From an uncultured Candidatus Saccharibacteria bacterium (lineage in GTDB: Bacteria; Patescibacteriota; Minisyncoccia; Phycocordibacterales; UBA9973), in contig CAYYSI010000001.1 in assembly GCA_964474435.1 (NCBI GenBank), positions 270,835 through 334,834 of the forward strand: a DNA stretch of 64,000 bases, read 5' to 3'. Position 1 is the first letter of the stretch. Each line of letters opens with the position of its first letter. Below, piece after piece: positions 8,654 through 33,966 of this stretch. The position numbers were made by a program, and so were the translations under genes. A model generated the notes under the pieces. That model searched no databases and was not told where the DNA came from. It saw only the letters and a program-made list of their open reading frames with translations.

Positions 8654-8767
8654 TAGTGCGGAAACTGTATCACGGAGAGGGTTTTTTGGCAATTCCCTAT
8701 TTATTGACTTTATTGTTAAATATGCTATAGTAATTAAAAATCAATATTAACCTCAAAACAAACTATC

Positions 8768-9208
8768 ATGTTTCAGCCGTTCTTTTTATCCAGAAATAAA
8801 CTTCACAAAATTGCAGAGCTTTTCTCCGAAGAGCCTTACAAAAGTGCGAAAGCAGAATTCTTTCCCGGAGTTTTAGCTATCGATTTTATAGAACCGGAAT
8901 TATTAGAATTAATTCCCTGTAAAAGACCCCTTACTGTATTTGAGAATGTGATTCCTTTTGATGTGCAGTCATTATCTTCTGCGCTTACTCGTCATGCAAA
9001 TGTGAGGAAATATATCTTCACACTTGCACATGAGTACCATGGAAATCCGATTACACTTTTTTGTAGCGGGAGTAAAATACTAGGAGAAATCCCATTTCTT
9101 AAGCTACCTCCCACTACCATGAGTACTACTCAGATCGGATTGATCGATAATGATTACGATGGATCAATGGAGAATACCTTTCAACTGGTATATAGAATTG
9201 CTTCATAG
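8768..9208 (+). CDS. Hypothetical protein (146 aa)
   Basis: An ORF-track ORF preceded by a TTGACT-N16-TATAGT promoter. No family recognised. Confidence 0.4.
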   Translation: MFQPFFLSRNKLHKIAELFSEEPYKSAKAEFFPGVLAIDFIEPELLELIPCKRPLTVFENVIPFDVQSLSSALTRHANVRKYIFTLAHEYHGNPITLFCSGSKILGEIPFLKLPPTTMSTTQIGLIDNDYDGSMENTFQLVYRIAS

Positions 9209-9287
9209 GTTACAAAAGAAAGTTCCCTGATAATAATCAGGGACTTTTTATTTGCCCATACCATCACTATCGTGTTACAACATACAC

Positions 9288-9686
9288 ATGAAAGACTCTA
9301 TGGAACGCAATAAAATAAAACTCGAGCGCGGGGCAGCTGTTGCAACCAAGTGGATTGGCTCTACCGCTTCCCTGGTGACGCATACCGTATTGTTTGTCGC
9401 TGCATTCATTGTACCGATCTTTGGTGTGCCATTTGACCGCGTATTGCTCGTACTCACGACTGTCGTTTCGCTTGAGGCAATATATCTCTCTATTTTTATA
9501 CAAATGTCCGTGAACAAAAACACGCAGGATATCGAAATCATCCAAGAAGATGTTGAAGAGATTCAGGAAGACGTGGAAGAAATCGAAAAAGACGTTGATG
9601 AGATCCAAAAGGATGTGGACGAGATTCAGGAAGACGTTGATGAGATCCAGGAAGATATCGAAGAAATTGAGGAATTGAAGAAATAA
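9288..9686 (+). CDS. DUF1003-like two-TM membrane protein with an acidic heptad-repeat C-terminal tail
   Basis: It has two hydrophobic helices flanking PFDRVLLVLTTVVSLEAIYLSIFIQMS. The C-terminus is (E/Q)(D)(V/I)(E/D)EI(Q/E/K) x7. Confidence 0.5.
   Translation: MKDSMERNKIKLERGAAVATKWIGSTASLVTHTVLFVAAFIVPIFGVPFDRVLLVLTTVVSLEAIYLSIFIQMSVNKNTQDIEIIQEDVEEIQEDVEEIEKDVDEIQKDVDEIQEDVDEIQEDIEEIEELKK
9525..9671 (+). repeat. Seven tandem 21-bp coding repeats (consensus GAAGA(C/T)GTTGA(A/T)GAGAT(C/T)CAG)
   Basis: Direct repeats with a 21-nt period are read from the sequence. They encode EDV(E/D)EIQ heptads. Confidence 0.85.
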
Positions 9687-9736
9687 AAAACTCCGAATGA
9701 ATATCGAAGTTTAATGGGCGATTGTGCTTGCGGAGG

Positions 9737-9961
9737 TTATTTAATTTGCATCCATAGTTCTTTGGCTTTTCTTAAACTATAGCTTTGCCAATTTATTGCC
9801 AGTGGATACAACATAAAACGAAATACCACTATCATTGCAACAATAGCAAGGAAAAGTTTCCAAACATCTGTTGTGAAAAATAATGCTGGAGATCCACATA
9901 TAGTGCATCCAAACATCATTACTGAAAATATCGCAGCGATAACAGAAAGTACTTTTTTCAT
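9737..9961 (-). CDS. Hypothetical small membrane protein (74 aa)
   Basis: The ORF has two predicted hydrophobic helices. Confidence 0.3.
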   Translation of the reverse strand: MKKVLSVIAAIFSVMMFGCTICGSPALFFTTDVWKLFLAIVAMIVVFRFMLYPLAINWQSYSLRKAKELWMQIK

Positions 9962-10068
9962 ATTATTGATTTTTGAGGTTTATGAAAGAACTCCATATAC
10001 TATAGCACCTTTTGTACTACTTGTCAAATACTATTTTTGTGTTGCTATATAAGCTTAGATTTTAAATT

Positions 10069-10581
10069 CTATAGCGCTACTATCTTCATATCTTGCACAA
10101 TTTCGGACCCCCTAGTGATAATTCTTTCTCCAATCTGACCCCAATAAAAATATTTTTTGTAATCTTTTGGATCAATAAGTTTAATTTCAGTTACTGTTCC
10201 AGCTGGGTCAGACTCGAAATCTCCTAGAGGTTCCACTATACAGGCATATCGAAGTTGGTAGATAAAGCTTTGGTCTTTAAGGTTAATTACTTTTTGATAA
10301 CCTATTGGTTTAAAAGAAATTATTTTCATATTTGATTCTTCTTGAACCTCTCTTCGAAGGGTTTGTTCAAAAGTTTCATTTTTTTCAATTCTTCCTCCTA
10401 TCAAACCCCAACTTTTACCATTACCGCCAAAATACCCAAAAGCAACAATCAGTTTGTCTTTGTAAAAACAAACTCCGTATGTTTGCTTGCATTTCTCATA
10501 TTCAAGATTGTCGAAATTATCAGCATCTTGATACTCAAATACATATTCTGGTTCAGCTCTAAATGGTTCAGTTATCTTCAT
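10069..10581 (-). CDS. NUDIX hydrolase
   Basis: Nudix box GGRIEKNETFEQTLRREVQEESN (G.5E.7REUXEEXGU). Confidence 0.7.
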   Translation of the reverse strand: MKITEPFRAEPEYVFEYQDADNFDNLEYEKCKQTYGVCFYKDKLIVAFGYFGGNGKSWGLIGGRIEKNETFEQTLRREVQEESNMKIISFKPIGYQKVINLKDQSFIYQLRYACIVEPLGDFESDPAGTVTEIKLIDPKDYKKYFYWGQIGERIITRGSEIVQDMKIVAL

Positions 10582-10590
10582 AGTTATTGC

Positions 10591-11580
10591 TTAGATCCTG
10601 AATTCAATCACATCCCCGTCCGTCACGATATATTCTTTGCCTTCTGTGCGGACTTTGCCGCGGGACTTTGCTTCGGCATAGCTTCCTGACTCGATGAGAT
10701 CAGTGTATGCAACGACTTCGGCGCGGATGAATTTATCTTTGAAGTCTGTATGGATCGCAGTACCAGCGATCGGCGCAGTGCTGCCTACCTGTATCGTCCA
10801 CGCGCGACTCTCGTCTGCCCCAGTCGTAAAGAATGTTTCAAGTCCGAGAAGTTTGTACGCCTCGACGATCAGATCATCAAATCCTTTTTCAAATACACTA
10901 TCGATCCTTACAAACGGACCAGGTACTGCGAACTCCACATTTTCATTTGCTTCAGACGTGTTGAGCACATAGAGCATTGGTTTGAGCGTGAGGAGGTTGA
11001 GTGATTTGATCTTGAACTTTTCTTCATCAGTGAGCCCGACCGTGCTTGCGAGCTGCCCTGCTTCGAGAGCGGTATTTATTTTTTGCACGATAGAGTCTTC
11101 GTAGATTGCATCCTTATCGCCTTTCTTTACGTCCTTGGCGAGTGTTCCAATACGTTTGGATATAATCTCCATATCAGAGAGAATGAGCTCAAGGTTGATG
11201 ACGTCGATGTCAGAGAGTGGATTGATAGCATTTGCAACATGGATCACTGATGGGTCTTGGAAGACACGCACGACGTGTGCGATCGCATCAACTTCACGGA
11301 TGTTGGTGAGGAATTTATTGCCCAAACCTTCGCCCTTCGACGCTCCTGCCACCAGTCCTGCAATGTCGACGAACTCAATCGCTGCAGGAATCGTCTTGGC
11401 ACTCTGTGAAAAGTCTGAGAGCTTTTGCAAACGCTCATCTGGTACTGGCACGATACCCACACTTGGATCGATCGTACAAAATGGATAGTTCTCTGCCGGC
11501 ACTGACTTCTTGGTCAACGCATTAAACAACGTCGATTTGCCGACGTTTGGAAGCCCGACGATGCCTATAGATAAACTCAT
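10591..11580 (-). CDS. ychF: Ribosome-binding ATPase YchF (Obg-family GTPase)
   Basis: G1 motif GIVGLPNVGKSTLFNALT, then the YchF coiled-coil insert and a C-terminal TGS domain (EAKSRGKVRTEGKEYIVTDGDVIEFRI). Confidence 0.9.
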   Translation of the reverse strand: MSLSIGIVGLPNVGKSTLFNALTKKSVPAENYPFCTIDPSVGIVPVPDERLQKLSDFSQSAKTIPAAIEFVDIAGLVAGASKGEGLGNKFLTNIREVDAIAHVVRVFQDPSVIHVANAINPLSDIDVINLELILSDMEIISKRIGTLAKDVKKGDKDAIYEDSIVQKINTALEAGQLASTVGLTDEEKFKIKSLNLLTLKPMLYVLNTSEANENVEFAVPGPFVRIDSVFEKGFDDLIVEAYKLLGLETFFTTGADESRAWTIQVGSTAPIAGTAIHTDFKDKFIRAEVVAYTDLIESGSYAEAKSRGKVRTEGKEYIVTDGDVIEFRI

Positions 11581-11611
11581 AGGTTTGGATAATACCAGAT
11601 TTGGGCAAATA

Positions 11612-11640
11612 AAAAAACCGCCTTTTTATCAGCGGTTAAT
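11612..11640 (-). terminator. Rho-independent terminator (AACCGC-loop-GCGGTT + T7 on the minus strand)
   Basis: Located 3' of the 11662-12117 minus-strand gene. Confidence 0.5.
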
Positions 11641-11661
11641 TTCATAATAATTCTAACACTG

Positions 11662-12117
11662 TTAGACACCCAGTTGAGATTCGAAGAAATTCTCTTTTAC
11701 CTTTTCTTTTTCATCGCCGTCAATTTCATTAAATAACCAAAAAAATGTTTTCTTTCTACCAGGCACGTTGGCATAGTGCTTTTTTGTAATTTCACGATCC
11801 CGAATGGTTGCATGTCCATCAAAGTAAAGATCAATCAACTTCATCTTACCTCTATGATAGTAGCAAAAAATATTATGTCCTATTTGCAAAGAACAATGCA
11901 TCCTTGGCTCTTCTCCAAAATATTCCCTAACCTCACGAAATACTCGTTTGGTTATTTTTTTGGAGTCAGTGAGGTTTTTGTCATCCGAAAGAAGTTGATT
12001 GATCCACTTTTGAACCAATCGCCTTCCTTTAAACATATAGAGGGAATATTGTGCTGAGAATTCTGGACTTCCTTTTAAAAATAAAGCCCATAACTTGCCT
12101 TTTGTTTTTATAAGCAT
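11662..12117 (-). CDS. Hypothetical protein (151 aa) with a possible HEPN-like R-x5-H motif
   Basis: The only basis is the IRDREITKKH motif, which is weak. It sits in an AT-rich block. Confidence 0.35.
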   Translation of the reverse strand: MLIKTKGKLWALFLKGSPEFSAQYSLYMFKGRRLVQKWINQLLSDDKNLTDSKKITKRVFREVREYFGEEPRMHCSLQIGHNIFCYYHRGKMKLIDLYFDGHATIRDREITKKHYANVPGRKKTFFWLFNEIDGDEKEKVKENFFESQLGV

Positions 12118-12236
12118 AAAGAACTGTTTTAGGTTTTTATAGTACCATATTAAGCTTGACTAGTCAATACATTTGTGCTATACTACATTAAACCAAAAAC
12201 TGGGAGGAGCTGACCCAGAGACAAACAGCAAGTACT

Positions 12237-12620
12237 ATGGCAAATGAATTAATAATCAGGGTTTCAAAGAAAAGAACAGTAAACAATAACTTTTCTTTTA
12301 ATTTCGACACCAACCTTCCCTCTAACGCTCACAGTGTTCAGTTGCCTGAATCTGGGATACTTCCAGAAACAGAAAGTGTAGAACGTGAGGTTATCGAGCA
12401 GCAAGTGAAAAGTACGCTTGATGTGATATTTTGTTTAGCAAAAAGTCATTTCAATGCAACAGGTGCAATGAGGTTTAAATTACTATTTAGTGATAAATAT
12501 GTTGGAACTGGTCTCATTGCTGTTGGTGAACAAAGGATTGAAACCCATAGAGAAATATCAATTCCAATGTTAGGAACAGAAGCATCATTTATATTTTGCT
12601 GTATGCCTAATCGTTGTTAA
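12237..12620 (+). CDS. Hypothetical protein (127 aa)
   Basis: An ORF preceded by a TTGACT..TATACT promoter. No family recognised. Confidence 0.35.
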   Translation: MANELIIRVSKKRTVNNNFSFNFDTNLPSNAHSVQLPESGILPETESVEREVIEQQVKSTLDVIFCLAKSHFNATGAMRFKLLFSDKYVGTGLIAVGEQRIETHREISIPMLGTEASFIFCCMPNRC

Positions 12621-12729
12621 AGTGATAAATAAGGGATGTGAACAATAGTAGCATCCCTTCATTATTCAGTTCATAACTTCGGTTATGGGTTGATTGTGAA
12701 ATACATTCGTTCATTCAAAAGTCTAAATA

Positions 12730-13257
12730 ATGGAGCAAATATTCAAATTCTGTTACCACAACTGGTACATATTCTTCACTGGAATTATCTTCACTTACCT
12801 TGCAGTATTCCCTTTTTTAAGATCAAGAATACCGCAAATAAGATTACTGGGACTTATTGCGATGCTTTGGCCGCTCGGTAAAGTTTTGCAGTACACGCAC
12901 TTTGGGAGTACCCTTATTAGAAGCTACATATCAGATATTGGGTTTGCAACAGCTCTAGGACTTTTTATCGCCTACAGATTTCTTGCTGAAATAAAATCCT
13001 ATTCGTCCAATCGGTATGAATTCAGGGTAAACCTTAAGTTGAGTCTACTATACGGCATAAGCATAGGTTTCTTCTTTGCGGTATTGATAGAAGGGGCTCA
13101 GATGATAATGGACTATTTCAACTACCAGAAGGTTGGACATCTATCTCAGGGAGCACGTGGAGACATAAACGACATGGTTGTATATCTCCTTTCCACTATG
13201 GTTTCCATAGTGATAGTGCAACATATCGATGTATGTCCGAGATTGAAGCAAGCTTAG
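12730..13257 (+). CDS. VanZ-like membrane protein
   Basis: It has four hydrophobic helices and a C-terminal ARGDINDMVVYLLS motif resembling the VanZ family GxxDDxxxNxxG. Confidence 0.4.
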   Translation: MEQIFKFCYHNWYIFFTGIIFTYLAVFPFLRSRIPQIRLLGLIAMLWPLGKVLQYTHFGSTLIRSYISDIGFATALGLFIAYRFLAEIKSYSSNRYEFRVNLKLSLLYGISIGFFFAVLIEGAQMIMDYFNYQKVGHLSQGARGDINDMVVYLLSTMVSIVIVQHIDVCPRLKQA

Positions 13258-13279
13258 CAGAAAATACCAGGACAAAAAA

Positions 13280-13308
13280 TTTAAAGCCAACCAGAAACGG
13301 TTGGCTTT
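13280..13308. terminator. Bidirectional terminator between convergent genes (AAGCCAACC-loop-GGTTGGCTT)
   Basis: A 9-bp stem flanked by an A-run and a T-run. Confidence 0.5.
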
Positions 13309-13309
13309 T

Positions 13310-13612
13310 TTACTTCCCCATCAACTTCATCAGCGGTGCAAGCTCATCGCGATATTTTGCGATTTCTGCCTTATGCTTTTCCATGACGGATACTGCGGCG
13401 TACATTTCTGCCATACCTCCTTTTTTCTTTTCTTCGATTTCTTTTTGGATCGTTTCAAAGAGTGCTTTGACTTCTGTATTGGATTCAAGGGCCTTTAAAC
13501 TTGCGGCAAGTTCAGGATTTTCTGAGAGCTGCTGTGCAATAGCCTCAGCCTGATCTTTCGGGACCCCCTTCATTTGGAGGGTTTTTTTGATGAAAAATGA
13601 TTTGATTCCCAT
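13310..13612 (-). CDS. Hypothetical helical protein (100 aa)
   Basis: ORF-track ORF with no family recognised. Confidence 0.4.
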   Translation of the reverse strand: MGIKSFFIKKTLQMKGVPKDQAEAIAQQLSENPELAASLKALESNTEVKALFETIQKEIEEKKKGGMAEMYAAVSVMEKHKAEIAKYRDELAPLMKLMGK

Positions 13613-17178: not shown

Positions 17179-17742
17179 GTGTATACTTGTAAGGTGGAAC
17201 GCTCCCAATCGTCACAAGAGAAGACTGATCCAAGACAACAAGATCTCGACAAGGAAGCGTTATTTTTGGGGTTTATCAAGGACTTCCAAGACGCAATCTT
17301 CCGATTTGTATACTTTCGGGTAGGTACTCGTGCTGTCGCAGTCGACATCACCCAAGACACCTTTACCAAGGTCTGGAGCTATCTAGCTTCGGGCAAGGAT
17401 ATACAGTATCCGGAGGCATTTTTATACCGAGCGGCGAAAAACGCGCTTGTCGATTATTACAAAAAGGCTAAAAGCGGTTCGCTCGACACCATGCTCGAGG
17501 GAGGGTTTGATCCGGCATCTCACAAAGATACCGACGAGATCCTCCGAGAAGACGACATCCAAAGCATTCGGACAATCCTCGAAGACCTGGATGAAGAAAG
17601 TCGTCAAATCATCTTTCTCCGATATACCGAAGAAAAGCCGATCGAAGAAATCGCGGATCTCTATGGCAAAAGCGTGAATGCCATGACGGTGCAGATACAT
17701 CGCATCATCAAAAAACTCCGTACCCAATACAATGAAGTATAA
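17179..17742 (+). CDS. ECF-type RNA polymerase sigma factor (sigma-70 family regions 2 and 4); start uncertain, GTG in the ORF track
   Basis: Region 2 (FLGFIKDFQDAIFRFVYFRVG..AVDITQDTF) and region 4 (ESRQIIFLRYTEEKPIEEIADLYGKSVNAMTVQIHRIIKKLR) are present. Confidence 0.7.
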   Translation: MYTCKVERSQSSQEKTDPRQQDLDKEALFLGFIKDFQDAIFRFVYFRVGTRAVAVDITQDTFTKVWSYLASGKDIQYPEAFLYRAAKNALVDYYKKAKSGSLDTMLEGGFDPASHKDTDEILREDDIQSIRTILEDLDEESRQIIFLRYTEEKPIEEIADLYGKSVNAMTVQIHRIIKKLRTQYNEV

Positions 17743-18466
17743 TTTTGAACAATTGAACAGACTCAAATCCCTCACCCTAAGCGAGGAAGAAAAAGGGCGT
17801 ATTCGATCGCACGCCGCATTTGTGATCATGAACACTCCGGCATCATCTCGTGCAGTACGCCCGCTCTTTCAGCGTGGGATGTATCACGGACTGCGCATTG
17901 CTCTTTCGAGCTTTGCATTCTTTCTTTTTGTGGGCGGATCAGTGTCAGCAGTCGCAGATAGTGCACTTCCTGGAGACTCACTCTACCCAGTCAAGATCGC
18001 GTTTAATGAACGTGTAAAAGAAATGTTCCAAAAGACACCCGAAGAAAAAGTGGCATATGGCACAAAGCGAGTTGAAAACCGCGTCAATGAAATCAAAACC
18101 CTTGCTGCATCAAAGACATTGACCAAAGCAAAGCAAGAAACAGTACAAAAAGCTCTTGATAGTCATATCAAAGATCTCTCGACTGATCTCAATGCACTTA
18201 GTACAACTGCACCAACTGCCGCGCTCACTGCAACAACAAACCTCGAAGAAAGTCTCAAGGCAAGTAAGGCTATCTTGGAAAAGAGTGAAGACCTCGCAGG
18301 TAAAGAAGAAGCTCTCCTCGCCGTTGATGGCACACTCCAAAAAGTTTCTGACCAAGAAGTAAAAATTATTTCAAAAGAAATCGACAGTATTGCAACTGAT
18401 GTAAACACGACAACTGTTGGCACAACCACTACAGCTCCTGCTCCGAGTACTCCTGTCGGGCCGTAA
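17732..18466 (+). CDS. Putative anti-sigma factor / DUF5667-like membrane protein
   Basis: It overlaps the end of the sigma factor. It has one TM helix and an LPGDSLYPVK motif resembling DUF5667, then a long helical domain and a Thr-rich tail. Confidence 0.45.
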   Translation: MKYNFEQLNRLKSLTLSEEEKGRIRSHAAFVIMNTPASSRAVRPLFQRGMYHGLRIALSSFAFFLFVGGSVSAVADSALPGDSLYPVKIAFNERVKEMFQKTPEEKVAYGTKRVENRVNEIKTLAASKTLTKAKQETVQKALDSHIKDLSTDLNALSTTAPTAALTATTNLEESLKASKAILEKSEDLAGKEEALLAVDGTLQKVSDQEVKIISKEIDSIATDVNTTTVGTTTTAPAPSTPVGP

Positions 18467-19790
18467 TACGCTCAAGGAGTATCGACAAGCCGATAACGAA
18501 AAGCGCAACCGCACCAAATATATATGTTTTGGTGCGGTTTCGTATTGGAGTACTTTCACCTGTGCGTGCGTCGCTTGCGTTTGCAACGAGATCATCTGCT
18601 GCCACACCTGCATCAATCGGATCGTACTCAATCGTTTCAGTATTATCAGATATAGTTTTCACCACCTCCGTATTCTGATCACTTCGCGCAACTATTGAGC
18701 CTGACGGGTCAACAAGTGATGCGGTAGCAATAGACGAAATACCAAACGCAGATACGGGTATCACGACCGTTGCCTTCTCTGCGACGATTGTCATGTCAGG
18801 GATCGCAAGTTGTTTGCCGGGCACAACGACCTTCCAGCCCGTAAGGTCGACTGCAGTCGATGACGTATTTTTTATCTGGAGCGCAGTTTTGTCGAGGATG
18901 CCAAGCGATATTGCAGGTGCACTCACGACGATTTTCTTACTACCCTTCAGTGGTGCATTTTTATTGATAGCATCACTATATGCATATGATACGGTGTACG
19001 TGCCCGGATATGTATACGTGTGCGTGATGGGCGCGACAGTACGCTGCGAGATAGTCGTCCCGTCCCCCATGTTCCAATAGATACTGCCTTCGTTGAGCTG
19101 ATAGTTGTATTCAAGCAGTGGCCTTGCGTCAAATTCGTAGCTTACACCACGATATATCGTAGATGGAACAATAAATGCAATACCTGGTTTGTTGGGCGAT
19201 ACTTTGGGGATAGGATACGGATCTTCAGGGACTTCTTCTTCAGACGCATCAGGCTCATCAGAAGTGCTGGTGCCCGTAGCCTCTCCTGCCGCAGCTTTTG
19301 GCGTTGCAGCTCCCGTGATCCATTTGTCGCCATTCCATTGCATGGTGTGTTTGCTCGTTGCATCCCCTGCTGGCCAACCACCCAGATAGTTGAGTTCTTC
19401 GGCTGTAGCACCACTCGCGTCTTTGAGCACGAGGTCTTCTCCAGTGTTCGCAAACCCTCCGCCACCAAATGATCCTGATTCGTCATTGATGCCAGGTACT
19501 GCATCCGGTGCGCTTGCAGTTGTGCGCTCAAGCAAGAGATAGCTATTTGCAGCAATGCTTTTGGTAAACGTAAAGACAAGTGCGCCACCATCACCTTCGT
19601 AGAGTTTCCACCCGGCGAGGTTCACTGAACTCTGCCCATCGTTATAGAGCTCGATCCATTCACTATACTGACTACTCGCAGTGCCCATCCATGCGACTTC
19701 GGTAATCTGTACATCTGCATGTACTAGTTGAGGTACCAAAACGATACAACATGCCAAGAGAAAATATCTCATACCGAAAAAGTATGACAT
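18429..19790 (-). CDS. Lamin-tail-domain (LTD) secreted or surface protein with a C-terminal TM anchor
   Basis: It has a signal peptide and two LTD-like modules (ITEVAWMG...SEWIELYNDGQSSVNLAGWKL, plus a second LTD-like module), an acidic linker and a C-terminal hydrophobic helix. Confidence 0.6.
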   Translation of the reverse strand: MSYFFGMRYFLLACCIVLVPQLVHADVQITEVAWMGTASSQYSEWIELYNDGQSSVNLAGWKLYEGDGGALVFTFTKSIAANSYLLLERTTASAPDAVPGINDESGSFGGGGFANTGEDLVLKDASGATAEELNYLGGWPAGDATSKHTMQWNGDKWITGAATPKAAAGEATGTSTSDEPDASEEEVPEDPYPIPKVSPNKPGIAFIVPSTIYRGVSYEFDARPLLEYNYQLNEGSIYWNMGDGTTISQRTVAPITHTYTYPGTYTVSYAYSDAINKNAPLKGSKKIVVSAPAISLGILDKTALQIKNTSSTAVDLTGWKVVVPGKQLAIPDMTIVAEKATVVIPVSAFGISSIATASLVDPSGSIVARSDQNTEVVKTISDNTETIEYDPIDAGVAADDLVANASDARTGESTPIRNRTKTYIFGAVALFVIGLSILLERITARQEYSEQEL

Positions 19791-19802
19791 ATTGTCTTAA
19801 AA

Positions 19803-21767
19803 TTATTCTAAAATCTTTTTGAGGTCATCAGAAGAAATCTCTTGAATTTCCGGCGAAGGAGTAGGCACTGGAATTTCTGCAGGGCTTTCCGGCTTTGGAA
19901 TTGGTGGTGTTGGAGTTACAGGTTTTGTAGCTGACGCTGTATCACCCATGGCCTTTTGTAATGCCATTTTTAATATGTCGCGATTTTTCTCTGTGGGACC
20001 ACGCTCGGCATGTTTGACGGGCAACACTGTTTCGCGAAGTGGTTTCTCATCAGTAAACGGCGCGCCACCCTTTTCATGGATTGTTGCAGTGAGCGTCTCG
20101 GTTTTCTTTTCGACAATGATGTCTTTGGTTGGTGAACCATCGATCGCATCAAGCAAATGCTTGAGTTCAGACGATGCGGCAATTGGCTTTTCTGGTACTG
20201 CGTGTACTTGCACTGGAGTTTCAGTTGGGGCTGATTCTGTCGCAACCTTTTTGATCAATGCCTTTGCAAAGGGTTTGTGCATAGGTGCGGGATCCTTTGG
20301 TTTGAACATACGTGGAAGAATACCCTGCGCAGGAGAAGCAGTGTTTGGAGCTGATATTTTGGGTGGATTGTATGGAGCCGATGCACCAGGCTTTGTAGGA
20401 CTGGATTGGTATGCTCGATTGGGGTCTTCCCACTTCTTTTTAACTTTTTCTTCGGGTACGTCATTTGGATCCGGTGCAAACCAGTCAGCGATATTTTTCT
20501 CAACAGTTTCTTTGGGATTGGCATAGGCTGCGCGCGATGCTTCGATCGCATCGTTGCGGAATGTAATCGCAGGACGTGCAAGTGGTGGCAATGTCTTTGC
20601 AGAAAATGGCTGGGAGCCGATATCATTGATCATGAGCGACAGATAGATCTCTGCCATACCGAGGTTGATGATGTCGTTTGCGGTAAACTGTGGTGCAAAC
20701 ACTTTTTCAAGAAGCTCTGCATCAAGCGGCCCTACACGGAAACTCACTGTCGTCCCCACGTTGCCAAACACGGCATCACGCACCTTTTCTTCCATTTGTG
20801 CGACGTACTGGTGTGCAATGATGAGCGCGAGTTTGTATTTGCGCGCCTCTGCCAAAATGTCAGCAAATGTTTCGTTTGCAAATGATTGGAATTCGTCGAC
20901 ATAGAAATAAAAGTTTGAAAGTCCGCCCATTTGGTTTTGAGAGAGCTCTGCGCGACTCATTGCGGCAAGGTAGATCTTGGTGATGATCATTGATCCAAGG
21001 AGTGAAGTGTTGGTGTCCCCAATGCGTCCTTTGGAAAGGTTGATGATGAGGATCTTTTGTTCGTCCATCACCTTGCGAATATCAAAGGTGGACTTGGATT
21101 GGCCAATGATGTTGCGTACAAGTGGGTTTGCGGTGAATTGTCCGATCTTGTTTTGGATCGCAGGTACGGCTTCTGCGGCCATACGTTCGGTATAGTTTGC
21201 AAATTCTTCGGTCCAAAATGCTTTGACTGCAGCGTCAGTGATGTTGTCCACCACTTTTTTGCGGAAATTCTTTTCAGAAAGCATGCGGTTTACTCCAAGC
21301 AATGTCGCACCTGGGTACTCAAGAAGTGCCAAAAGTGTGTTCGTGAGGATGTACTCCATTCGAGCAGACCATGCATCAACCCAAATCTTCTTGAATGTAC
21401 TCATAAGTCCAGAGACCACGAGGTGGCGACGATCAGGACCGACGTCTTCGAGGACGTTGAATGAAATAGGATTCTCTGTATCAAACGGCGCAAAGTACAC
21501 GACGTCCTTGATACGATGCTCCGGGATGTACTCAAGCATCTTTTCGGCAAATGAGCCGTGTGGATCGAGTACTGCCACACCTTCACCGTGGTTGATGTCC
21601 TGGATCGCCATGTTTTCAAGCAAGGTAGATTTACCAACACCTGATTTACCGATCACGTACATGTGTCGTGTGCGGTCGCGGCTTTTGATACCAAACTTGA
21701 TGCGTTGTCCACGCGCATCAGTCTCTGCGAAATACGTAATGTGCTCGGGATCGTATGGAACGGTCAT
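19803..21767 (-). CDS. P-loop ATPase of the TraD/VirD4/TrwB type-IV-coupling-protein family (no TM helices) with a long Pro/Thr-rich disordered C-terminal tail
   Basis: HMYVIGKSGVGKSTLL...VAVLDPHGSF is a TrwB-like Walker A / DPxG block. There is also a hhhhDE Walker B (FYFYVDEFQ) and IIAHQ. The last ~230 aa are low-complexity P/T/A/K-rich. Confidence 0.5.
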   Translation of the reverse strand: MTVPYDPEHITYFAETDARGQRIKFGIKSRDRTRHMYVIGKSGVGKSTLLENMAIQDINHGEGVAVLDPHGSFAEKMLEYIPEHRIKDVVYFAPFDTENPISFNVLEDVGPDRRHLVVSGLMSTFKKIWVDAWSARMEYILTNTLLALLEYPGATLLGVNRMLSEKNFRKKVVDNITDAAVKAFWTEEFANYTERMAAEAVPAIQNKIGQFTANPLVRNIIGQSKSTFDIRKVMDEQKILIINLSKGRIGDTNTSLLGSMIITKIYLAAMSRAELSQNQMGGLSNFYFYVDEFQSFANETFADILAEARKYKLALIIAHQYVAQMEEKVRDAVFGNVGTTVSFRVGPLDAELLEKVFAPQFTANDIINLGMAEIYLSLMINDIGSQPFSAKTLPPLARPAITFRNDAIEASRAAYANPKETVEKNIADWFAPDPNDVPEEKVKKKWEDPNRAYQSSPTKPGASAPYNPPKISAPNTASPAQGILPRMFKPKDPAPMHKPFAKALIKKVATESAPTETPVQVHAVPEKPIAASSELKHLLDAIDGSPTKDIIVEKKTETLTATIHEKGGAPFTDEKPLRETVLPVKHAERGPTEKNRDILKMALQKAMGDTASATKPVTPTPPIPKPESPAEIPVPTPSPEIQEISSDDLKKILE

Positions 21768-21869
21768 AGGTATCTGTAGTATAGCAGTAATATTTTTAAT
21801 TTACCCAATAGGAGAAACGCATCATTTGACATTTTATACATTTAATAGTATTTTACTTAAAAAATTATC

Positions 21870-22316
21870 ATGAAAAAAAATAAAATATGGGAAAATGCTC
21901 GGTTGTTCGTAGAAAAGGCGTCGGACAAACTCGGAACAGGTATTGATGAAAATATTAAGGATCTAACAATTACGATGAGGGCATTCGGTTTTAATACCTC
22001 ACAATCTTGTGAAGGACATATTGATCATGGTTACCCTTATCCTTGGATTGAAATACGAAACGAAGATCCCGATAAAAGTCTCTTGGAAGAACTACGTATG
22101 ACGAACTTTGTCGAGGAATTTTATGAAAAAAGAATTTCATATAAGTATGCCCGCATCGTAGTCTTTCACTACAAAAATAGATTTCGGGTTCAGACATACG
22201 TAAAAGAAGCATTCCAAAAGATTGCAAATTCTGAGGATTATAATCTTTTCAAAGAAAATTGCTCACGTGAAATGAAAGATTTTGCGGAGTTCTTAAGAGT
22301 AAAATTCTGGAATTAA
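21870..22316 (+). CDS. Hypothetical protein (148 aa) in an AT-rich block
   Basis: ORF ending in a terminator. No family recognised. Confidence 0.4.
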   Translation: MKKNKIWENARLFVEKASDKLGTGIDENIKDLTITMRAFGFNTSQSCEGHIDHGYPYPWIEIRNEDPDKSLLEELRMTNFVEEFYEKRISYKYARIVVFHYKNRFRVQTYVKEAFQKIANSEDYNLFKENCSREMKDFAEFLRVKFWN

Positions 22317-22319
22317 AAG

Positions 22320-22350
22320 AAGCCGCTCAATGAGCGGCTTTGTTTTTGGA
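22320..22350 (+). terminator. Rho-independent terminator (AAGCCGCTCA-ATG-AGCGGCTT + TGTTTTTGG)
   Basis: A stem followed by a T-run, seen directly in the sequence. Confidence 0.55.
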
Positions 22351-22360
22351 ATTTTTTACC

Positions 22361-23041
22361 TTAATTAACACGAGGGACATTTTTATCAGCTCTTTTTTTA
22401 CGAAGTGTTTTGATAACCTTTCCTTCACTTTTTGCTTTTTCCATTCTTTTTGTAAATGGTTCAAACATATTATTGAGAAAGAGCTTTGTCTTATCACTAA
22501 CTGGAATGTCGAGAAAATATATTTCCTCTCTTCTGTTTCGGTGAATATGTCCACGCTTTTTTGTCTTACATGTAAACTTTCGTACATGCATAACACCCGG
22601 AATTATTTCAAATCCCATAAAATGATCACAGTCAGGATCAATGGGCCAATGATCAACCATGTCTTTGAAAGCTCGTGCGCACTCCTTGATTTTGTTTGGA
22701 AACCCTTCAGTAAACAAGATGTCTGGTGAACTCAGGTATGTACCTGATGATATATGCTCAAGTCGAGCATATGCCCATTTCGTCTCATCGACGCGACCAG
22801 TTGCTCCGCTGACATTAAGAAATATCCGAGCACGTACTGTTTGGTTCCTGTACGTTCGCTCACATACATATTGAATCTTAAATCCGGATCTCCCACGTTT
22901 TTGTGGAGTTGTTGAAATGTCGTTTTTCGACTTCATTTCTTCAACGATTTCCTCGATATTTAATCGACGCCACGTCATTGATTCTAATTCATCAAAAATG
23001 TTTTTCCATACCCAATCTGTTGGTAATACTTTGTACGCCAT
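22361..23041 (-). CDS. Hypothetical protein (226 aa) in an AT-rich block
   Basis: ORF-track ORF with no family recognised. Confidence 0.4.
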   Translation of the reverse strand: MAYKVLPTDWVWKNIFDELESMTWRRLNIEEIVEEMKSKNDISTTPQKRGRSGFKIQYVCERTYRNQTVRARIFLNVSGATGRVDETKWAYARLEHISSGTYLSSPDILFTEGFPNKIKECARAFKDMVDHWPIDPDCDHFMGFEIIPGVMHVRKFTCKTKKRGHIHRNRREEIYFLDIPVSDKTKLFLNNMFEPFTKRMEKAKSEGKVIKTLRKKRADKNVPRVN

Positions 23042-23106
23042 AATTCCCTCCTTTTGTTTTATTGTTTAAGAATCTATTTCTTTCCCACAATACCACAAAT
23101 CACACA

Positions 23107-23140
23107 AAAAGAAAGACCGCTTGCGCGGTCATCTTTTTGA
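23107..23140 (-). terminator. Terminator hairpin (GACCGC-TTGC-GCGGTC) with a T-run on the minus strand, 3' of the helicase gene
   Basis: Seen directly in the sequence. Confidence 0.45.
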
Positions 23141-23246
23141 AACTATTTTGCTGCTTTTTTTGGTTTCTTTACTTCTTTTCGTTGTCTATTGTCTCCTTTT
23201 CCCATAGTGTTGTTGATTATACTTGTATGTAGATAGTATACGTCGC

Positions 23247-24929
23247 TTATTCTTTTGCTTCAAGTACCATCATCATACGCGCAATGCGAATCTCATCATA
23301 CGAATACCTGTCTCCGAGCGCTTCGCGTATCGGCGCGAGCTTGGTCGTGTCGGCAGATTGAAATGCGCGTTTGATCTCTGGGTACCCTTTGCGGATCTTG
23401 TCCGTGATCAGATAGTCGATGTCATCATATGAGAGACGACCGTTCATGACGAGCTTTTCTAGATGGCCAAATATTGTCACTGGTACGAGGCCGCGCTCTT
23501 TGCCGATCACACTAATCGGTTTACCTTGGAGGACGAGCATGAGAGTGGTTTCAAGTGTGTCGCCTTTTTCCTTCTTCACCTTTGGAGATTTTTTGGTCAC
23601 CGTGCCGCCATTGGCCAAGATGAAGTTGTGATGCATTGTTTCAATGTCGTCTGCACGCATATCACCGAATGTCAGTGCTGCAGACTCTGACTGCTGCGCA
23701 AACTTTCCATCGACTTCGAGAATACGCGGGTGGACCTGGAATGTTCGCTGGTTCCACCCAAGCAAGTGCAGGCCATCAAGTGTGCGCACACGAGAGAGCG
23801 CCACGTACCCTTGTCCGTATTCAAATACTTCGCGCAAGTCCATCACTGCGGCGTCCATACTCATCCCCTGACTTTTGTGGATCGTTATCGCCCACGCGAG
23901 CCTCAGTGGGATTTGTTGGATCATTGCCTTTTGTTTCCCATTTTCCTCCACGACCCATTCAGTCGGCTCGACAACAATACGCTCGCCTTTGTGCGTCTCG
24001 ATGATCGGATACTTCGTCCCCTGTTCAAATCCAGTGACCGTTCCGAGTGTGCCGTTCACATATCCTTTTTGACTATTATTTTTTGTACACATGACAATTG
24101 CGCCAACCTTGAGGACAAGTCGTTCTGGTGAAAGGCATCCCTTTTGCAAACTTGCAACCAGACTGTCCTTGCCTTTAGTCTGCATTGAAAAAATGTTCGG
24201 AAGTGTGGTGAGTTTTTCGAGCTCACGCGTATTGATATCGTCGACGTCGACGTTGTGTGCAAAGAGCCGTGTCACACTACTTTCGTGATCGAGTGCGTGC
24301 TCGGCAGATATCTGTCTCTTTTGCAAATGATCATGATGCATCTGGTCATATTCATTTTTGCGAATGGCAGAAAGGATGGAGAGGAAGTTGGTATCGCTTT
24401 GACGGTGTTGTTCAGTCAGGTAGCACATCACCGGTCGCATCCGTTTCCATGCGTCTGACTCAAATGCAAACTGCGCCTGATCTCCTCCTTTGGTGACTGG
24501 CGGAAGTTGAAAGAAATCTCCGACAAGTATCACCTGCATGCCACCAAATGCTTCGTCGCTATGTCGCACCTCGCGACAAACCATGTCGACCATATCGAGC
24601 GTGCGTGCATCGATCATCGATACTTCATCGAGTATCAACACTTTGGTACCTTGAATACGGCGTACGAGATATTCAGTTGTTGTGATGTGATCAAGGTCGT
24701 ATGGTGCAAGACTTCGTCTGATACCAATACCGCTCCATGAGTGGATCGTCTGTCCATGAATGTGTGTTGCTGCAATACCTGTCGATGCGGTGATCGCAGG
24801 CTCGATGCCATGCTCGCGCAGGTATGCGACGTACTGATTGATGGTATGCGTTTTGCCCGCGCCTGGCTCTCCGGTGAGGAACACATTTGCTCCCGTTTTG
24901 AGTATGGTGAGTGCTTCGGCTTGGGTCAT
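23247..24929 (-). CDS. Pif1/RecD-family ATP-dependent DNA helicase
   Basis: Walker A is FLTGEPGAGKTHTI and Walker B is VLILDEVSMID. The motifs VILVGDFFQLPPV and LAWAITIHKSQGMSMD are present, with a ~150-aa C-terminal extension. The start is at MTQAEAL; the upstream ORF extension is not coding. Confidence 0.7.
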   Translation of the reverse strand: MTQAEALTILKTGANVFLTGEPGAGKTHTINQYVAYLREHGIEPAITASTGIAATHIHGQTIHSWSGIGIRRSLAPYDLDHITTTEYLVRRIQGTKVLILDEVSMIDARTLDMVDMVCREVRHSDEAFGGMQVILVGDFFQLPPVTKGGDQAQFAFESDAWKRMRPVMCYLTEQHRQSDTNFLSILSAIRKNEYDQMHHDHLQKRQISAEHALDHESSVTRLFAHNVDVDDINTRELEKLTTLPNIFSMQTKGKDSLVASLQKGCLSPERLVLKVGAIVMCTKNNSQKGYVNGTLGTVTGFEQGTKYPIIETHKGERIVVEPTEWVVEENGKQKAMIQQIPLRLAWAITIHKSQGMSMDAAVMDLREVFEYGQGYVALSRVRTLDGLHLLGWNQRTFQVHPRILEVDGKFAQQSESAALTFGDMRADDIETMHHNFILANGGTVTKKSPKVKKEKGDTLETTLMLVLQGKPISVIGKERGLVPVTIFGHLEKLVMNGRLSYDDIDYLITDKIRKGYPEIKRAFQSADTTKLAPIREALGDRYSYDEIRIARMMMVLEAKE

Positions 24930-31460: not shown

Positions 31461-32198
31461 TTATTTCCCCCTACTCCACTCATACATCACCACTGATGTC
31501 GCAACAGAGGCATTCAATGATTCGCATCCTGGCTGCATTGGGATCGAGAGTGTGACGTCGCAGAGCTCGAGTGTCTTTTCACGAATACCAGTGGACTCGT
31601 TACCAACCACAAAAAGTGTTGGCGTATCAAAAACCGTTTCCTTGAGCACTTGCGTGCCTTCCATCACGAGTCCGTACACCCACATGCGCTTTTCTTTGAA
31701 CGTTCTGATCGTTTGGTTCACATTCCCAATACGCACGATAGGTATACGAAATGCCATACCGGCAGAAGTCTTGATGACGGTACCAGTGATTGGAGATTGG
31801 TTGTGCTCAGGCATGAGGATTGCACTTGCACCAAATGCAGCTGCGGAGCGAATAATCGCACCGACATTGTGCGGATCTTGGAGCTCGTCGAGCAATACAA
31901 AACATGGATTTGTATCACCATCGAGCAGACCGATCACTTCATCAAAATCCGTATACAGCTTCTCAGGATTGATGACACCTATCACCCCTTGGTGGACTGC
32001 ATCATCCCCCACTTTCTTGCCAGCATCCGCGGTTTTCATACTACTCACCCCAATATTATTTTTCTTCAATAGTTCTGTAAGCTCATTATCAGCAGATGCA
32101 TTGGCATCCAAGAACACCTTTGACACTGCACTCGGACGCGCCAAAAGCGCCTCCCGGAGGGCGTGTTTGCCGTATAAGTAAATCTTGTCTTCTTTCAT
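31461..32198 (-). CDS. rlmB: SpoU/TrmH-family 2'-O-ribose RNA methyltransferase (RlmB-like)
   Basis: The N-terminal substrate-binding domain has YGKHALREAL. SPOUT motifs DPHNVGAIIRSAAAFG, LVVGNESTGI and SLNASVATSV are present. Confidence 0.75.
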   Translation of the reverse strand: MKEDKIYLYGKHALREALLARPSAVSKVFLDANASADNELTELLKKNNIGVSSMKTADAGKKVGDDAVHQGVIGVINPEKLYTDFDEVIGLLDGDTNPCFVLLDELQDPHNVGAIIRSAAAFGASAILMPEHNQSPITGTVIKTSAGMAFRIPIVRIGNVNQTIRTFKEKRMWVYGLVMEGTQVLKETVFDTPTLFVVGNESTGIREKTLELCDVTLSIPMQPGCESLNASVATSVVMYEWSRGK

Positions 32199-32299
32199 AG
32201 TTTTCAAAATACCACGTTTTGACCATTCAGTAAAGTATGCTATCCTCTGCTTAGTACAGAAATGTACTAAATTAATCATAACCATTACATCAAAACCAT

Positions 32300-32821
32300 A
32301 TGAATCAATTTATTTTAATTATTAATGGCCCTATGGTAGGAGGTAAAACTTCTGCTGTCGAAGTCATTATGAACCAGTACAAAAAGATCTTTCGAGTCTC
32401 ACCCAACAAGATCAAATTTTTAATATCAGATTATACACCGGATCGCGATCGCCTACTTGTCCATACTTCTACCCTACTCGTTGCAGAAAAGATGCTTGAG
32501 GGAGGAATGTCTCTCCTAATTGAAGGAGGTTCAGTGATGCAAGGTAGCCTCAATGATGAAATCAAAAAGCTTGGAGAAAAGCGCGGTATAAAAGTAACTA
32601 CCGTCAATATTGAAGCTCCTCTAGAAGCACTCAAGAAACGATTTGATGAAAGAGTGATGAATTCGATCACTCGCGGAACAAAGATTTCAGTGACCGATGA
32701 AGAAGACTTTATGAAGCGATATGATGCGTATCTCAAAATACGTGATCAAGCAGAAAAAACATTCGACTCAAATACTCAAAACCCTGGTGACATCGCAAAA
32801 CAAATCATGACGCTCGTATAA
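32300..32821 (+). CDS. P-loop NTPase / small kinase-like protein
   Basis: Walker A ILIINGPMVGGKTS. No confident subfamily. Confidence 0.45.
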   Translation: MNQFILIINGPMVGGKTSAVEVIMNQYKKIFRVSPNKIKFLISDYTPDRDRLLVHTSTLLVAEKMLEGGMSLLIEGGSVMQGSLNDEIKKLGEKRGIKVTTVNIEAPLEALKKRFDERVMNSITRGTKISVTDEEDFMKRYDAYLKIRDQAEKTFDSNTQNPGDIAKQIMTLV

Positions 32822-32823
32822 AA

Positions 32824-32855
32824 AAATCTCCCCAGTTGGGGAGATTTTTAATCAG
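32824..32855. terminator. Bidirectional terminator (ATCTCCCC-AGTT-GGGGAGAT)
   Basis: Between convergent genes. Confidence 0.55.
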
Positions 32856-33748
32856 ACGGTAATACCTAATCCTTTTAATATTCTTTCAACAATTTCAGGC
32901 GGAACTTCAAGATCACCAAGTTTTTCAAGATAAAAAGGAAGATACAATTCTTTGAGTTTTGGGCCAGTCTTTGAGAGACATCCATGCCAATCACTACCTG
33001 CTGAAATCAAAAGATTGTATTTTTCTACCAGCGTAAGTGCAAACTCTGTATCTTCTGGTGAATGACCTGTTCCATAACACTCAATCCCATCCATTCCCTG
33101 GTGTTTAAATTCAGCAATTATTTTCTCCTGTTCTTCTTTGTCAGGAGATATAACTTTTAGAGAAATCAACGGAGCAAGAGGGTGACTAAAGAACGCCTTG
33201 CCACCTGCCTTATGGATGACTGCAAATGCATCCTTGGGTTCAATCGTTGGTGCTGCATCCGGAAGACCACGAAGATAGACAAATCCATCATTTCTTCCTT
33301 CTACAATTCCCTCTTCGTGTAAGAAAAGTGCTATTCCAGGAATGCTGTAGTATTTAGGATCCTTGTCTGTAAAATGCTCAGGGATAATTTCTGATTTTCC
33401 ATCAGCGATCAGAATTCCATTAATCTCAGGAATGAGACTTGTGAAATGCTTTTTGCGATATTCATTAATTCCATCAAGAAAAGTTGTCAGCTCTTTGTTG
33501 GTGGGATTAATATTGTACCCAAGAATATGGATTGGTTGACCGCGATATCCGGTACTAATCTCAACTCCCGGAATAACTCTTATGGCAACTTTTTCAGCTT
33601 CAGTCGTAGCTATAGGTATAGCTGAAACAATGTCATGATCGGTAACAGAGATAATATCTAAATCCCCCGCTTTTGCATCAAGAATTATTTGTTTTGGTGT
33701 CTCACGTCCATCTGAATGGTCTGTGTGAATTTGTAGATCAATTTTCAT
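32852..33748 (-). CDS. PHP-domain phosphoesterase
   Basis: IDLQIHTDHSDG..ISVTDHD..GVEIS is typical of PHP His/Asp metal-binding motifs. Confidence 0.7.
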   Translation of the reverse strand: MKIDLQIHTDHSDGRETPKQIILDAKAGDLDIISVTDHDIVSAIPIATTEAEKVAIRVIPGVEISTGYRGQPIHILGYNINPTNKELTTFLDGINEYRKKHFTSLIPEINGILIADGKSEIIPEHFTDKDPKYYSIPGIALFLHEEGIVEGRNDGFVYLRGLPDAAPTIEPKDAFAVIHKAGGKAFFSHPLAPLISLKVISPDKEEQEKIIAEFKHQGMDGIECYGTGHSPEDTEFALTLVEKYNLLISAGSDWHGCLSKTGPKLKELYLPFYLEKLGDLEVPPEIVERILKGLGITV

Positions 33749-33966
33749 ATTGTTTATTTTTGTTGAGACTTTACTATAAAAATAGATTCTGTAAATAGAT
33801 ATTCCTTATTTCTGAATATCAGTAATGTCCTGCATGATACCAGAAAATCTGGTTACTACGCCTGCCATAATGCTCCTTATACACCAAAAGTCCTTTCACC
33901 GAATGACGCTTCCTATTATATATGGTAGCACAAAGCAAAAATCCCCGTGAAGGGATTTTTGCTTTG

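Follow-up and report, generated by a model that had tools for sequence, protein, structure and literature searches.

Do a VirD4-like ATPase and a Pif1-family helicase, encoded close together in a reduced bacterial genome, betray a mobile element? The question is raised by five consecutive open reading frames (ORFs) within a 64,000-nucleotide stretch of contig CAYYSI010000001.1 from an uncultured Candidatus Saccharibacteria bacterium (hereafter the window), which encode a surface protein with an LTD domain, a TrwB/VirD4-like ATPase, two small proteins of 148 and 226 amino acids (aa) and a Pif1-family helicase. The original prediction, made from the DNA sequence alone, regarded them as an accessory block of the conjugative or mobilisable kind, or as a defence block, in which two small orphan genes within an AT-rich segment could be the specificity or effector components. 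Here we show that the order of these genes is conserved among relatives, that the three larger genes are widespread, and that the genes framed by them are swapped at sharp breakpoints coinciding with conserved regulatory sequences. We consider it likely that the block is an ordinary, vertically inherited part of a Paceibacteria-type chromosome, and that it frames a 1.5-kb AT-rich hotspot of gene turnover with two slots.

Pfam matches bear out the predicted LTD, TraD/VirD4-like ATPase and Pif1 helicase domains, and also the flanks, which are an extracytoplasmic function (ECF) sigma/anti-sigma pair on one side and an L,D-transpeptidase (YkuD) gene on the other. To place the block among its relatives, GTDB was scanned with one genome per species, which gave at least 579 ATPase-encoding stretches, of which 80 loci were kept (loci are designated L plus a number). 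The order EngB to DoxX, (YkuD), Pif1, slot, ATPase, LTD, anti-sigma, sigma and NDH2 is found in the nearest GTDB relatives (L003-L006) and in L083, L094 and L098, and its ATPase-to-NDH2 half also in L007-L015, L051 and L105-L110; L083, L094, L098 and L105-L110 are metagenome contigs. The sigma/anti-sigma pair is syntenic with the ATPase and LTD genes in L003-L015, L051, L083, L094, L098 and L105-L110, and the block is kept in the same order in relatives whose ATPases are 72-80% identical overall. The ATPase and the helicase each have at least 8,000 homologues, the best 120 of which are 60-81% and 55-82% identical to them, respectively, over essentially the full length of the ATPase and the full length of the helicase. 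Named sources among these best 120 ATPase homologues are Paceibacterota, Nomurabacteria, Minisyncoccia and 'Patescibacteria group', and many of the best 120 Pif1 homologues share long contigs with ATPase homologues, their identities running parallel. Thus the view of the block as accessory, conjugative or mobilisable is not upheld, the LTD, ATPase and Pif1 genes being widely conserved and syntenic and the 226-aa gene, as described below, a positional orthologue.

The variable part of the block is confined to 21.77-23.25 kb and holds two cassettes whose contents differ between close relatives, in agreement with the original prediction, which had singled out 21780-23250. Cassette A, here the 226-aa gene, belongs to a family with 16 cluster representatives among 1.84 billion proteins (exhaustive phmmer search). 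A hidden Markov model built from these 16 representatives without the syntenic relatives recovered members just upstream of the ATPase gene in L004, L005, L008, L009 and L010 (E 8e-39 to 1e-11), with MsrA sitting between the two genes in L009 and L010, and iteration of the model added members in L006 and L003. When metagenomes were scanned with the ATPase core, the matches were for the most part distant relatives, and a single further family member, that of L105, came to light. Positional orthologues are present in L003-L006, L008-L010, L083, L091, L093, L094, L098, L100 and L105; in the later loci (L091, L093, L094, L098, L100, L105 and L185-L188) the family gene comes after DoxX or Pif1 and before the ATPase gene, from which it is sometimes separated by cargo, and all family members with usable context occupy this interval between DoxX/Pif1 and the ATPase. 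Since the family occurs at the same position across relatives, the 226-aa gene is a positional orthologue and not an inserted orphan. The label 'orphan' holds for both small genes insofar as neither protein has a Pfam, NCBIfam or PADLOC match at E <= 0.1 (their sole PHROG matches, E 0.036 and 0.07, are far from significant), but small families exist for both, with the 16 representatives for the 226-aa protein, and seven proteins in a 5.8-billion collection plus three viral contigs in IMG/VR for the 148-aa protein.

The alleles in slot A are strikingly more divergent than their surroundings. ATPase cores that are 92-100% identical adjoin 226-aa family proteins whose identity is mostly about 20%, where they can be aligned at all, and in an independent test the profiles of class I and class II, the two most divergent classes of the family, are matched by hhalign at 93.7% (E 1.9e-7, 183 columns) with 11% identity. 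The family consists of basic proteins of about 220-290 aa in which some allele pairs share only about 11% identity. An exchange is seen most directly between L098 and L100, which are 100% identical across 6,950 bp downstream and encode family proteins without BLASTP similarity; the 49 bp and 18 bp that directly bracket the family gene are 96-99% identical, and the breakpoints fall at the start codon of the family gene and 18 bp before the ATPase ATG. In L093, where the ATPase core is >99% identical to that of the window, the 226-aa gene is 88% identical with a ratio of nonsynonymous to synonymous substitution rates (dN/dS) of 0.10, and is therefore constrained within its allele lineage, its dN being 4-8 times that of the flanking genes.

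Slot B shows turnover of a different kind. The 148-aa gene is absent from all 160 surveyed loci; L083 carries a copy that is 66% identical, in the same place and orientation (dN/dS 0.10, with dS saturated). The corresponding position in L093 is taken by an unrelated 136-aa antisense ORF without a Pfam match, which lies exactly between terminator and promoter. When the DNA of the window is aligned with that of L093, near-identity extends until a break inside the terminator hairpin, is followed by about 500 bp without similarity, and resumes at the TTGACA element to continue into the ATPase gene, so that the TTGACA region upstream of the 148-aa gene is kept in L093 despite the different cassette. 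In other relatives slot B is occupied by MsrA, by a 412-aa gene together with MsrA or by a 124-aa ORF, or it is empty. The interval of L105, a more distant relative, is expanded, with a 152-aa ORF (1227-1685) before the family gene and the 412-aa ORF and MsrA (2564-4402) after it, and therefore tolerates several kb of cargo.

The elements that delimit the slots are themselves conserved. A hairpin with a T-run follows the 226-aa family gene in every relative examined, weakly in L094. On the other side, TGCTATACT, at the right-hand limit of the variable segment and close to where identity with L093 resumes, is the putative promoter of the ATPase gene, and the corresponding motif TTTGCTATACTA stands about 10 nt before the ATPase start codon in L003-L006, L094 and L100, L098 retaining GCTATACTA only; a motif ending this close to the ATG leaves room for a very short 5' leader or none. 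Judging from its own terminator and the promoter-like motif of the ATPase gene, the slot-A gene and the ATPase gene appear to be separate transcription units. An arrangement of the 226-aa gene, the ATPase gene and the LTD gene as one operon had been considered and was rejected on account of this terminator, which all examined relatives have after the family gene. The two small genes of the window had been described as convergent with their own terminators; they are indeed convergent, but share one bidirectional terminator, and it is the helicase gene that has a terminator of its own. The promoter-like site upstream of the 148-aa gene is the best promoter match of the region.

According to the model that we favour, three conserved genes, for a Pif1-HTH_40 helicase, a soluble ATPase and a membrane-anchored LTD-PKD protein, would frame the hotspot. 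Slot A would always hold one member of a basic, cytoplasmic and hyper-divergent family, here the 226-aa gene, and slot B, between the slot-A terminator and the ATPase promoter, would be empty or hold unrelated small cargo. The cassettes would be exchanged by homologous recombination through the conserved flanks, with the conserved terminator and promoter-like elements as the likely homology arms, plausibly after uptake of DNA from related strains. Low GC would be a standing property of fast-evolving genes and not a sign of recent foreign origin, and the ATPase-LTD pair may act at the cell envelope, as an exapted motor akin to coupling proteins, and not in conjugation. The locus resembles the known hotspots of gene turnover (integration or defence hotspots) in being a fixed interval between core genes with varying contents, sharp breakpoints and low GC. 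It differs from them in its very small size (0.7-3 kb), in that no integrase or att sites were seen at it, in that one slot holds homologous, hyper-divergent alleles of a single family and not unrelated systems, and in having swaps whose limits are a conserved promoter and terminator.

With regard to composition, the original prediction was correct that 21780-23250 is richer in AT than its flanks: its GC content is 0.353 against a window mean of 0.448 +/- 0.035, and just 0.1% of windows of the same size are equally low. It had also held that conserved synteny and uniform composition would speak against an accessory block; synteny is conserved, whereas composition is not uniform. A specific housekeeping role of the ATPase, of the FtsK or HerA type, which would likewise have spoken against such a block, did not emerge. 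The dinucleotide signature of the segment is ordinary (delta* 0.102 vs 0.079 +/- 0.025, with 18% of windows deviating at least as much), and three further AT-rich stretches are present within the window. In every relative the 226-aa family gene lies 3-14 points below the flanking genes in GC, and AT-richness is thus a standing feature of the locus. Recent horizontal transfer as the source of the low GC in slot A was rejected on account of this same dip in all relatives and the normal dinucleotide signature.

Low GC, the very small number of homologues, and the lack of database matches described above could also be taken to mean that the two small ORFs are spurious, and that the AT-rich stretch is a decaying or non-coding spacer. 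This we regard as barely credible, given that both proteins have homologues with conserved motifs and full-length alignments, that dN/dS is 0.10 in both comparisons, with L093 for the 226-aa gene and with L083 (at saturated dS) for the 148-aa gene, that AlphaFold2 models them with confidence (pLDDT 82 for the 226-aa and 88 for the 148-aa protein), and that each gene has a promoter-like site and a terminator.

Table 1. Features of the five-gene block and its immediate flanks, in window coordinates.
Feature	Position	Strand	Remarks
ECF sigma factor gene	17179-17742	+	Pfam Sigma70_r2/r4
DUF5667 anti-sigma gene	17732-18466	+	Pfam; converges on and overlaps the end of the LTD gene
Five consecutive ORFs (LTD protein, ATPase, 148-aa gene, 226-aa gene, Pif1 helicase)	18429-24929		
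LTD protein gene	18429-19790	-	453 aa
TrwB/VirD4-like ATPase gene	19803-21767	-	654 aa
Extended -10-like motif TGCTATACT	21778-21786	-	about 10 nt upstream of the ATPase ATG
Promoter-like site TTGACA-17-TATTTT	21826-21854	+	upstream of the 148-aa gene; 10/12 positions
148-aa gene (cassette B)	21870-22316	+	antisense to its neighbours
Bidirectional intrinsic terminator	22319-22341	both	10-bp stem, T-runs on both strands
226-aa gene (cassette A)	22361-23041	-	226 aa
Intrinsic terminator after the Pif1 gene	23115-23130	-	GACCGCGCAAGCGGTC followed by a T-run
Pif1-family helicase gene	23247-24929	-	560 aa

The ATPase is the protein on which a conjugative reading of the block would have to be built. 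It matches the Pfam families TrwB_AAD_bind (PF10412, 44.7 bits, cut-off 20.5) and T4SS-DNA_transf (PF02534, 39.2 bits, cut-off 20.1), and more weakly DUF87/HerA and TraG-D_C, and it carries a Walker A motif, GKSGVGKST, at aa 40-48 and a Walker B motif, FYFYVDEF, at aa ~286-293, both read from the sequence. It also matches phrog_5156 (E 5.9e-57). The NCBIfam conjugation models leave it far below their cut-offs, the best being conju_CD1115 with 53 bits vs 250, and the TraD models give 21-47 bits vs cut-offs of 366-647; in a sequence search of the PDB it aligns to TrwB at the P-loop only (E 0.008). It shares with TrwB of R388, VirD4 and F TraD a P-loop nucleotide-binding domain that includes the all-alpha insertion region (Pfam 10-310 of 387), it has a weak TraG-D_C match, and its long C-terminal extension has an acidic end motif like that of the TraD tail. 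Unlike these coupling proteins it lacks the N-terminal transmembrane domain: a hydropathy scan found no N-terminal anchor, Walker A starting at residue 40, and no transmembrane helix anywhere in the protein (maximum KD19 1.19 in 19-residue windows), nor were type IV secretion or relaxase partners found. We therefore call it a soluble TrwB/VirD4-like ATPase and not a type IV coupling protein (T4CP), because the transmembrane helix, a defining feature of a canonical T4CP, is lacking.

Homologues of this ATPase do occur on mobile elements, being found on 541 plasmids, of which 176 are conjugative or mobilisable. Together with the Pfam matches, the AT-rich segment inside the block and a weak NCBIfam similarity of the helicase to TraA relaxase-helicase domains, this could be read as an integrated conjugative or mobilisable element, or the remnant of one, in which the ATPase and the helicase would move DNA and the small proteins would be specificity factors. 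The other 365 of these plasmids are non-mobilizable, and the best annotated plasmid homologue, from Sulfitobacter (40% identity), is a lone gene among transposases; phage homologues, in the large Bacillus phages G (gp156), CP-51, JL and Shanette and in a Microcystis phage, are 22-29% identical. No integrase was found with the block, and a repeat search around the AT-rich segment gave chance-level repeats and the terminator palindrome only, with no flanking repeats. There is no tRNA gene within about 10 kb of the block, the nearest ones lying at window positions 8.4 kb and 34 kb. Neither a relaxase nor VirB4 appeared among the recurrent neighbour clusters of 81 loci or the large window ORFs that were scanned, an indirect search that did not include a profile scan of every ORF. 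Those large ORFs are housekeeping genes (TopA, RelA/SpoT, ClpB, GyrA and IF-2), and the recurrent neighbours of the ATPase gene in the 81 loci are a DUF4015 glycosidase, YkuD plus an S11 peptidase, RsmI, GT1/GT2, MurC and CofD/YvcK, so that its neighbourhood is one of cell-envelope biosynthesis and not of conjugation. Given in addition the conserved sequence and synteny and the missing membrane anchor, a conjugative element is in our view very improbable.

This conclusion is in keeping with a recent survey, in which 2,918 Patescibacteria genomes were found to encode 5,713 VirD4-type homologues, of which no more than 148 lay close to virB4, few relaxases were seen, and exaptation was suggested (Microb Genom 2025, PMC12102498). 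The ATPase of the window resembles these orphan T4CP homologues in its TrwB/VirD4 nucleotide-binding domain, its chromosomal location and phylum-wide distribution, and in that it is not beside virB4 and no relaxase was found nearby. The features that our analysis adds for this subfamily, namely the absence of a transmembrane segment, pairing with an LTD-PKD protein in about half of the loci, cell-envelope neighbours and motif islands in the tail, may also be described in that paper.

Several points weigh against reading the block as vertically inherited chromosome around a recombinational hotspot. The recombination mechanism is deduced from breakpoints in metagenome assemblies, among which some chimerism cannot be fully excluded, although chimeras would themselves need co-existing strains with different alleles. 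The 'core' status of the framing genes comes from breadth of homologues and synteny and not from a complete pangenome, and the search for relaxase and VirB4 was the indirect one of clustered neighbours and large ORFs. The Pif1 gene adjoins the ATPase gene in closer relatives only (5 of the 81 GTDB loci, plus L094, L098 and L187). Finally, the plasmid and phage relatives of the ATPase, at 22-40% identity, make a mobile ancestry possible at deep time.

Conservation within the ATPase is uneven. Among the best 120 of its homologues, per-residue conservation is 75-99% in the core (aa 1-420), and the tail (aa ~430-654, window 19803-20500 on the minus strand) is variable and rich in Pro, Ala and Lys; its poor conservation is consistent with disorder. 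Two islands stand out in the tail in the same 120 proteins, EKPLRETVLPVKHAERGPTEKNRDILK at aa 575-600 (73% mean conservation) and DDLKKILE at the C-terminus, and they look like docking motifs for some partner. The tail of TraD, which docks TraM, also ends in an acidic motif.

A candidate for functional association with the ATPase is the LTD protein, whose gene begins 12 bp past the ATPase stop codon (2 bp in L094 and L098). In 41 of 77 loci the gene that comes next after the ATPase gene encodes an LTD homologue, and these homologues have an N-terminal hydrophobic segment in 38 and a C-terminal one in 36 of the 41 cases. In the protein of the window such segments span aa 1-29 (signal-like) and aa 420-445 (a C-terminal transmembrane helix), and Pfam finds an LTD domain (PF00932, 76.1 bits, cut-off 34.3, E 3.4e-21) and a PKD domain (E 8e-7). 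A further stretch is weakly LTD-like, and the N-terminal LTD region is similar to that of ExeM, an extracellular nuclease (NCBIfam, 4e-6).

This close and recurrent pairing raises the possibility that the ATPase, the LTD-PKD protein and the basic slot-A protein form a module that moves DNA or protein across the envelope, in which the basic protein would be either an adaptor that binds nucleic acid or a substrate whose positively charged C-terminus is recognised, or else that the ATPase is a housekeeping DNA motor of the FtsK/HerA type. The conserved short motifs of the ATPase tail, including an acidic C-terminus that recalls TraD, and the ExeM-like region would suit such a module, as would the net positive charge of all 226-aa family proteins (+1 to +33), with their basic C-terminal stretch, and the constant position of their gene, in the interval before the ATPase gene. 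Against this, the terminator after the family gene (weak in L094) and the promoter-like motif before the ATPase gene point to separate transcription units, unrelated cargo can come between the two, and the ATPase is lineage-wide, whereas L011 and probably L012-L014 lack the family gene. Furthermore, the LTD protein has a single transmembrane helix and cannot alone form a channel, and a T4CP homologue of Southlakia has been reported to be non-essential. We therefore hold a module of this kind to be doubtful; as a working hypothesis, an envelope-associated role of the ATPase-LTD pair itself is the weightiest of the three functional proposals that we entertain.

The helicase belongs to the Pif1 family. 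Its PIF1 (PF05970, 123.5 bits, E 1.3e-35) and Pif1_2B (PF21530, 38.8 bits) domains are followed by a C-terminal HTH_40 domain at aa 458-551 (E 4.9e-16), and in the PDB it matches human PIF1 (6hpt, E 6.8e-76, residues 3-410) and Bacteroides Pif1 (E 1e-53). It shares with the bacterial protein BaPif1 (PDB 5FHD) and with human PIF1 the full superfamily 1B core with a 2B/SH3 domain, and differs from them in the HTH_40 domain; it is Paceibacteria-wide and here unlinked to mobile elements. The true start is the ATG at 24929 and not the upstream TTG of a 687-aa ORF; its relatives are 555-560 aa long and begin with MTQAEAL or MTQAQAL.

Alleles that are swapped in identical backgrounds and yet are under purifying selection within an allele lineage (dN/dS 0.10) invite a different interpretation of the AT-rich hotspot, namely as a conflict locus (anti-phage defence, immunity or anti-defence) in which slot A would hold specificity- or immunity-type alleles, kept in many ancient classes by frequency-dependent selection, and slot B would gather phage-derived accessory genes. 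The turnover of unrelated cargo in slot B is in line with this, and so is the occurrence of the 148-aa family on three viral contigs and on a phage-like contig carrying an integrase. The defence function envisaged by the original prediction receives no support from PADLOC, which found no complete defence system in the block and only generic P-loop and helicase similarities, of the ATPase to mad8 (1.2e-13) and HerA, and of the helicase to RecD-like proteins and PDC-S68. Neither small protein has a PADLOC match, no partner toxin was seen, and MsrA, a housekeeping repair enzyme, is among the occupants of slot B. In the slot-A protein no enzymatic or sensor domain can be recognised. Its AlphaFold2 model (pLDDT 82) gave no convincing match in fold searches, and hydropathy predicts no transmembrane segment in the 226-aa protein of the window, the one member analysed in this way. 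A zinc ribbon (CxxC...C...H) was considered as a hallmark of the family and rejected, as CxxC occurs in 11 of 28 members and some have no or one Cys. A conflict locus thus appears unlikely overall, if with a chance that should not be neglected, and the proposal that the hyper-variable basic protein serves in conflict or recognition takes second place among the working hypotheses of function.

The third of these working hypotheses concerns the 148-aa protein, for which a nucleotide- or nucleic-acid-modifying activity is conceivable. Its AlphaFold2 model (pLDDT 88) suggests a TYW3/Taw3-like alpha/beta fold, and the family-invariant residues D26, T43, S46-C47-E48-G49-H50, G54 and P58-W59 include the motif T..SCEGH. 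Taw3 proteins have the signature (S/T)xSSCxGR and invariant Asp25 and His73 (Currie et al. 2017, PMC5311493), and D26, T43, S46, C47 and G49 of the 148-aa family resemble this pattern. On the other hand, an invariant His50 stands in place of the essential Arg, the SS pair is not conserved at its first Ser, a counterpart of His73 was not found, and the protein is about 40-60 residues shorter. None of the seven family members matches the Pfam TYW3 model at E <= 10, and the family profile matches nothing among PDB sequences at E <= 10. We therefore describe the protein as TYW3-fold-like only and not as a member of TYW3, because the Arg is His, the His73 counterpart is absent and no link exists at the level of sequence profiles. 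A further difference from the TYW3/Taw3 enzymes, which are SAM-dependent tRNA-wybutosine N4-methyltransferases, lies in the hosts of the family, which are bacteria and phages; to our knowledge, these lack wybutosine.

Distant relatives of the 148-aa protein were also met in other surroundings. In L087 one is encoded at 3036-3686 within a SHMT-X-NUDIX-dNK-dUTPase cluster, and in L103, a 435-kb viral contig, another is encoded at 4983-5426, about 1.1 kb downstream of a NUDIX-box ORF. The contexts of these relatives hint at a role in nucleotide or nucleic-acid modification.

A bolder combination of these ideas would make the slot-A protein the variable substrate or adaptor of a minimal, Paceibacteria-specific, exapted secretion or DNA-handling machine formed by the ATPase and the LTD-PKD protein, its alleles being swapped in an arms race, and would make the 148-aa family the first bacterial or phage branch of the TYW3/Taw3 fold. 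We judge this to be a long shot. If it were true, the ATPase would dock through its conserved tail motifs, the swapping of alleles would reflect an arms race with host cells or phages, and the 148-aa branch of the TYW3/Taw3 methyltransferase fold would act on nucleotides or nucleic acids.

The preferred account, of vertically inherited genes framing a two-slot hotspot, has implications of its own. In Patescibacteria, a VirD4-like ATPase or a Pif1 helicase should not be taken as a sign of a conjugative element, and the abundant 'orphan T4CP' of this group gains a context that can be tested, with an ATPase lacking a transmembrane segment, an LTD-PKD partner, envelope neighbours and tail motifs. 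The locus would exemplify a recombination hotspot of very small size, its exchangeable coding cassettes flanked by a conserved promoter and a conserved terminator, and it indicates that reduced genomes still retain dedicated variable loci. Ancient hyper-divergent alleles that are exchanged between otherwise identical strains usually mark genes of conflict or recognition, and the 148-aa family could lead to an enzyme of the TYW3 fold from beyond archaea and eukaryotes.

Elsewhere in the window, three AT-rich stretches lie next to tRNA genes. That at 41300-44400 (GC <= 0.39) directly follows a tRNA Cys-Leu-Leu-Lys cluster (40907-41334) and has the most deviant dinucleotide signature of the window; two of its ORFs, 42174-43274 and 43213-44205 (+), each of >300 aa, have no Pfam match, and the stretch is a better candidate for an island than the five-gene block. 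The others, with at least some housekeeping genes in them, are found at 8300-13600, beside tRNA-Trp (8368-8440) and containing YchF at 10591-11580, and at 32050-34020, beside tRNA-Tyr (33966-34049) and containing a PHP-domain protein gene at 32852-33748. The window also holds a full-length group I catalytic intron at 61381-61654 (+; Rfam RF00028, 82 bits, E 2e-19), at a site where neither a tRNA nor an rRNA was called; it is overlapped at its 5' end by a 118-aa ORF (61117-61473, +) with HNH-endonuclease-like Cys/His motifs (CEICGY...HHLDP...CANCH).

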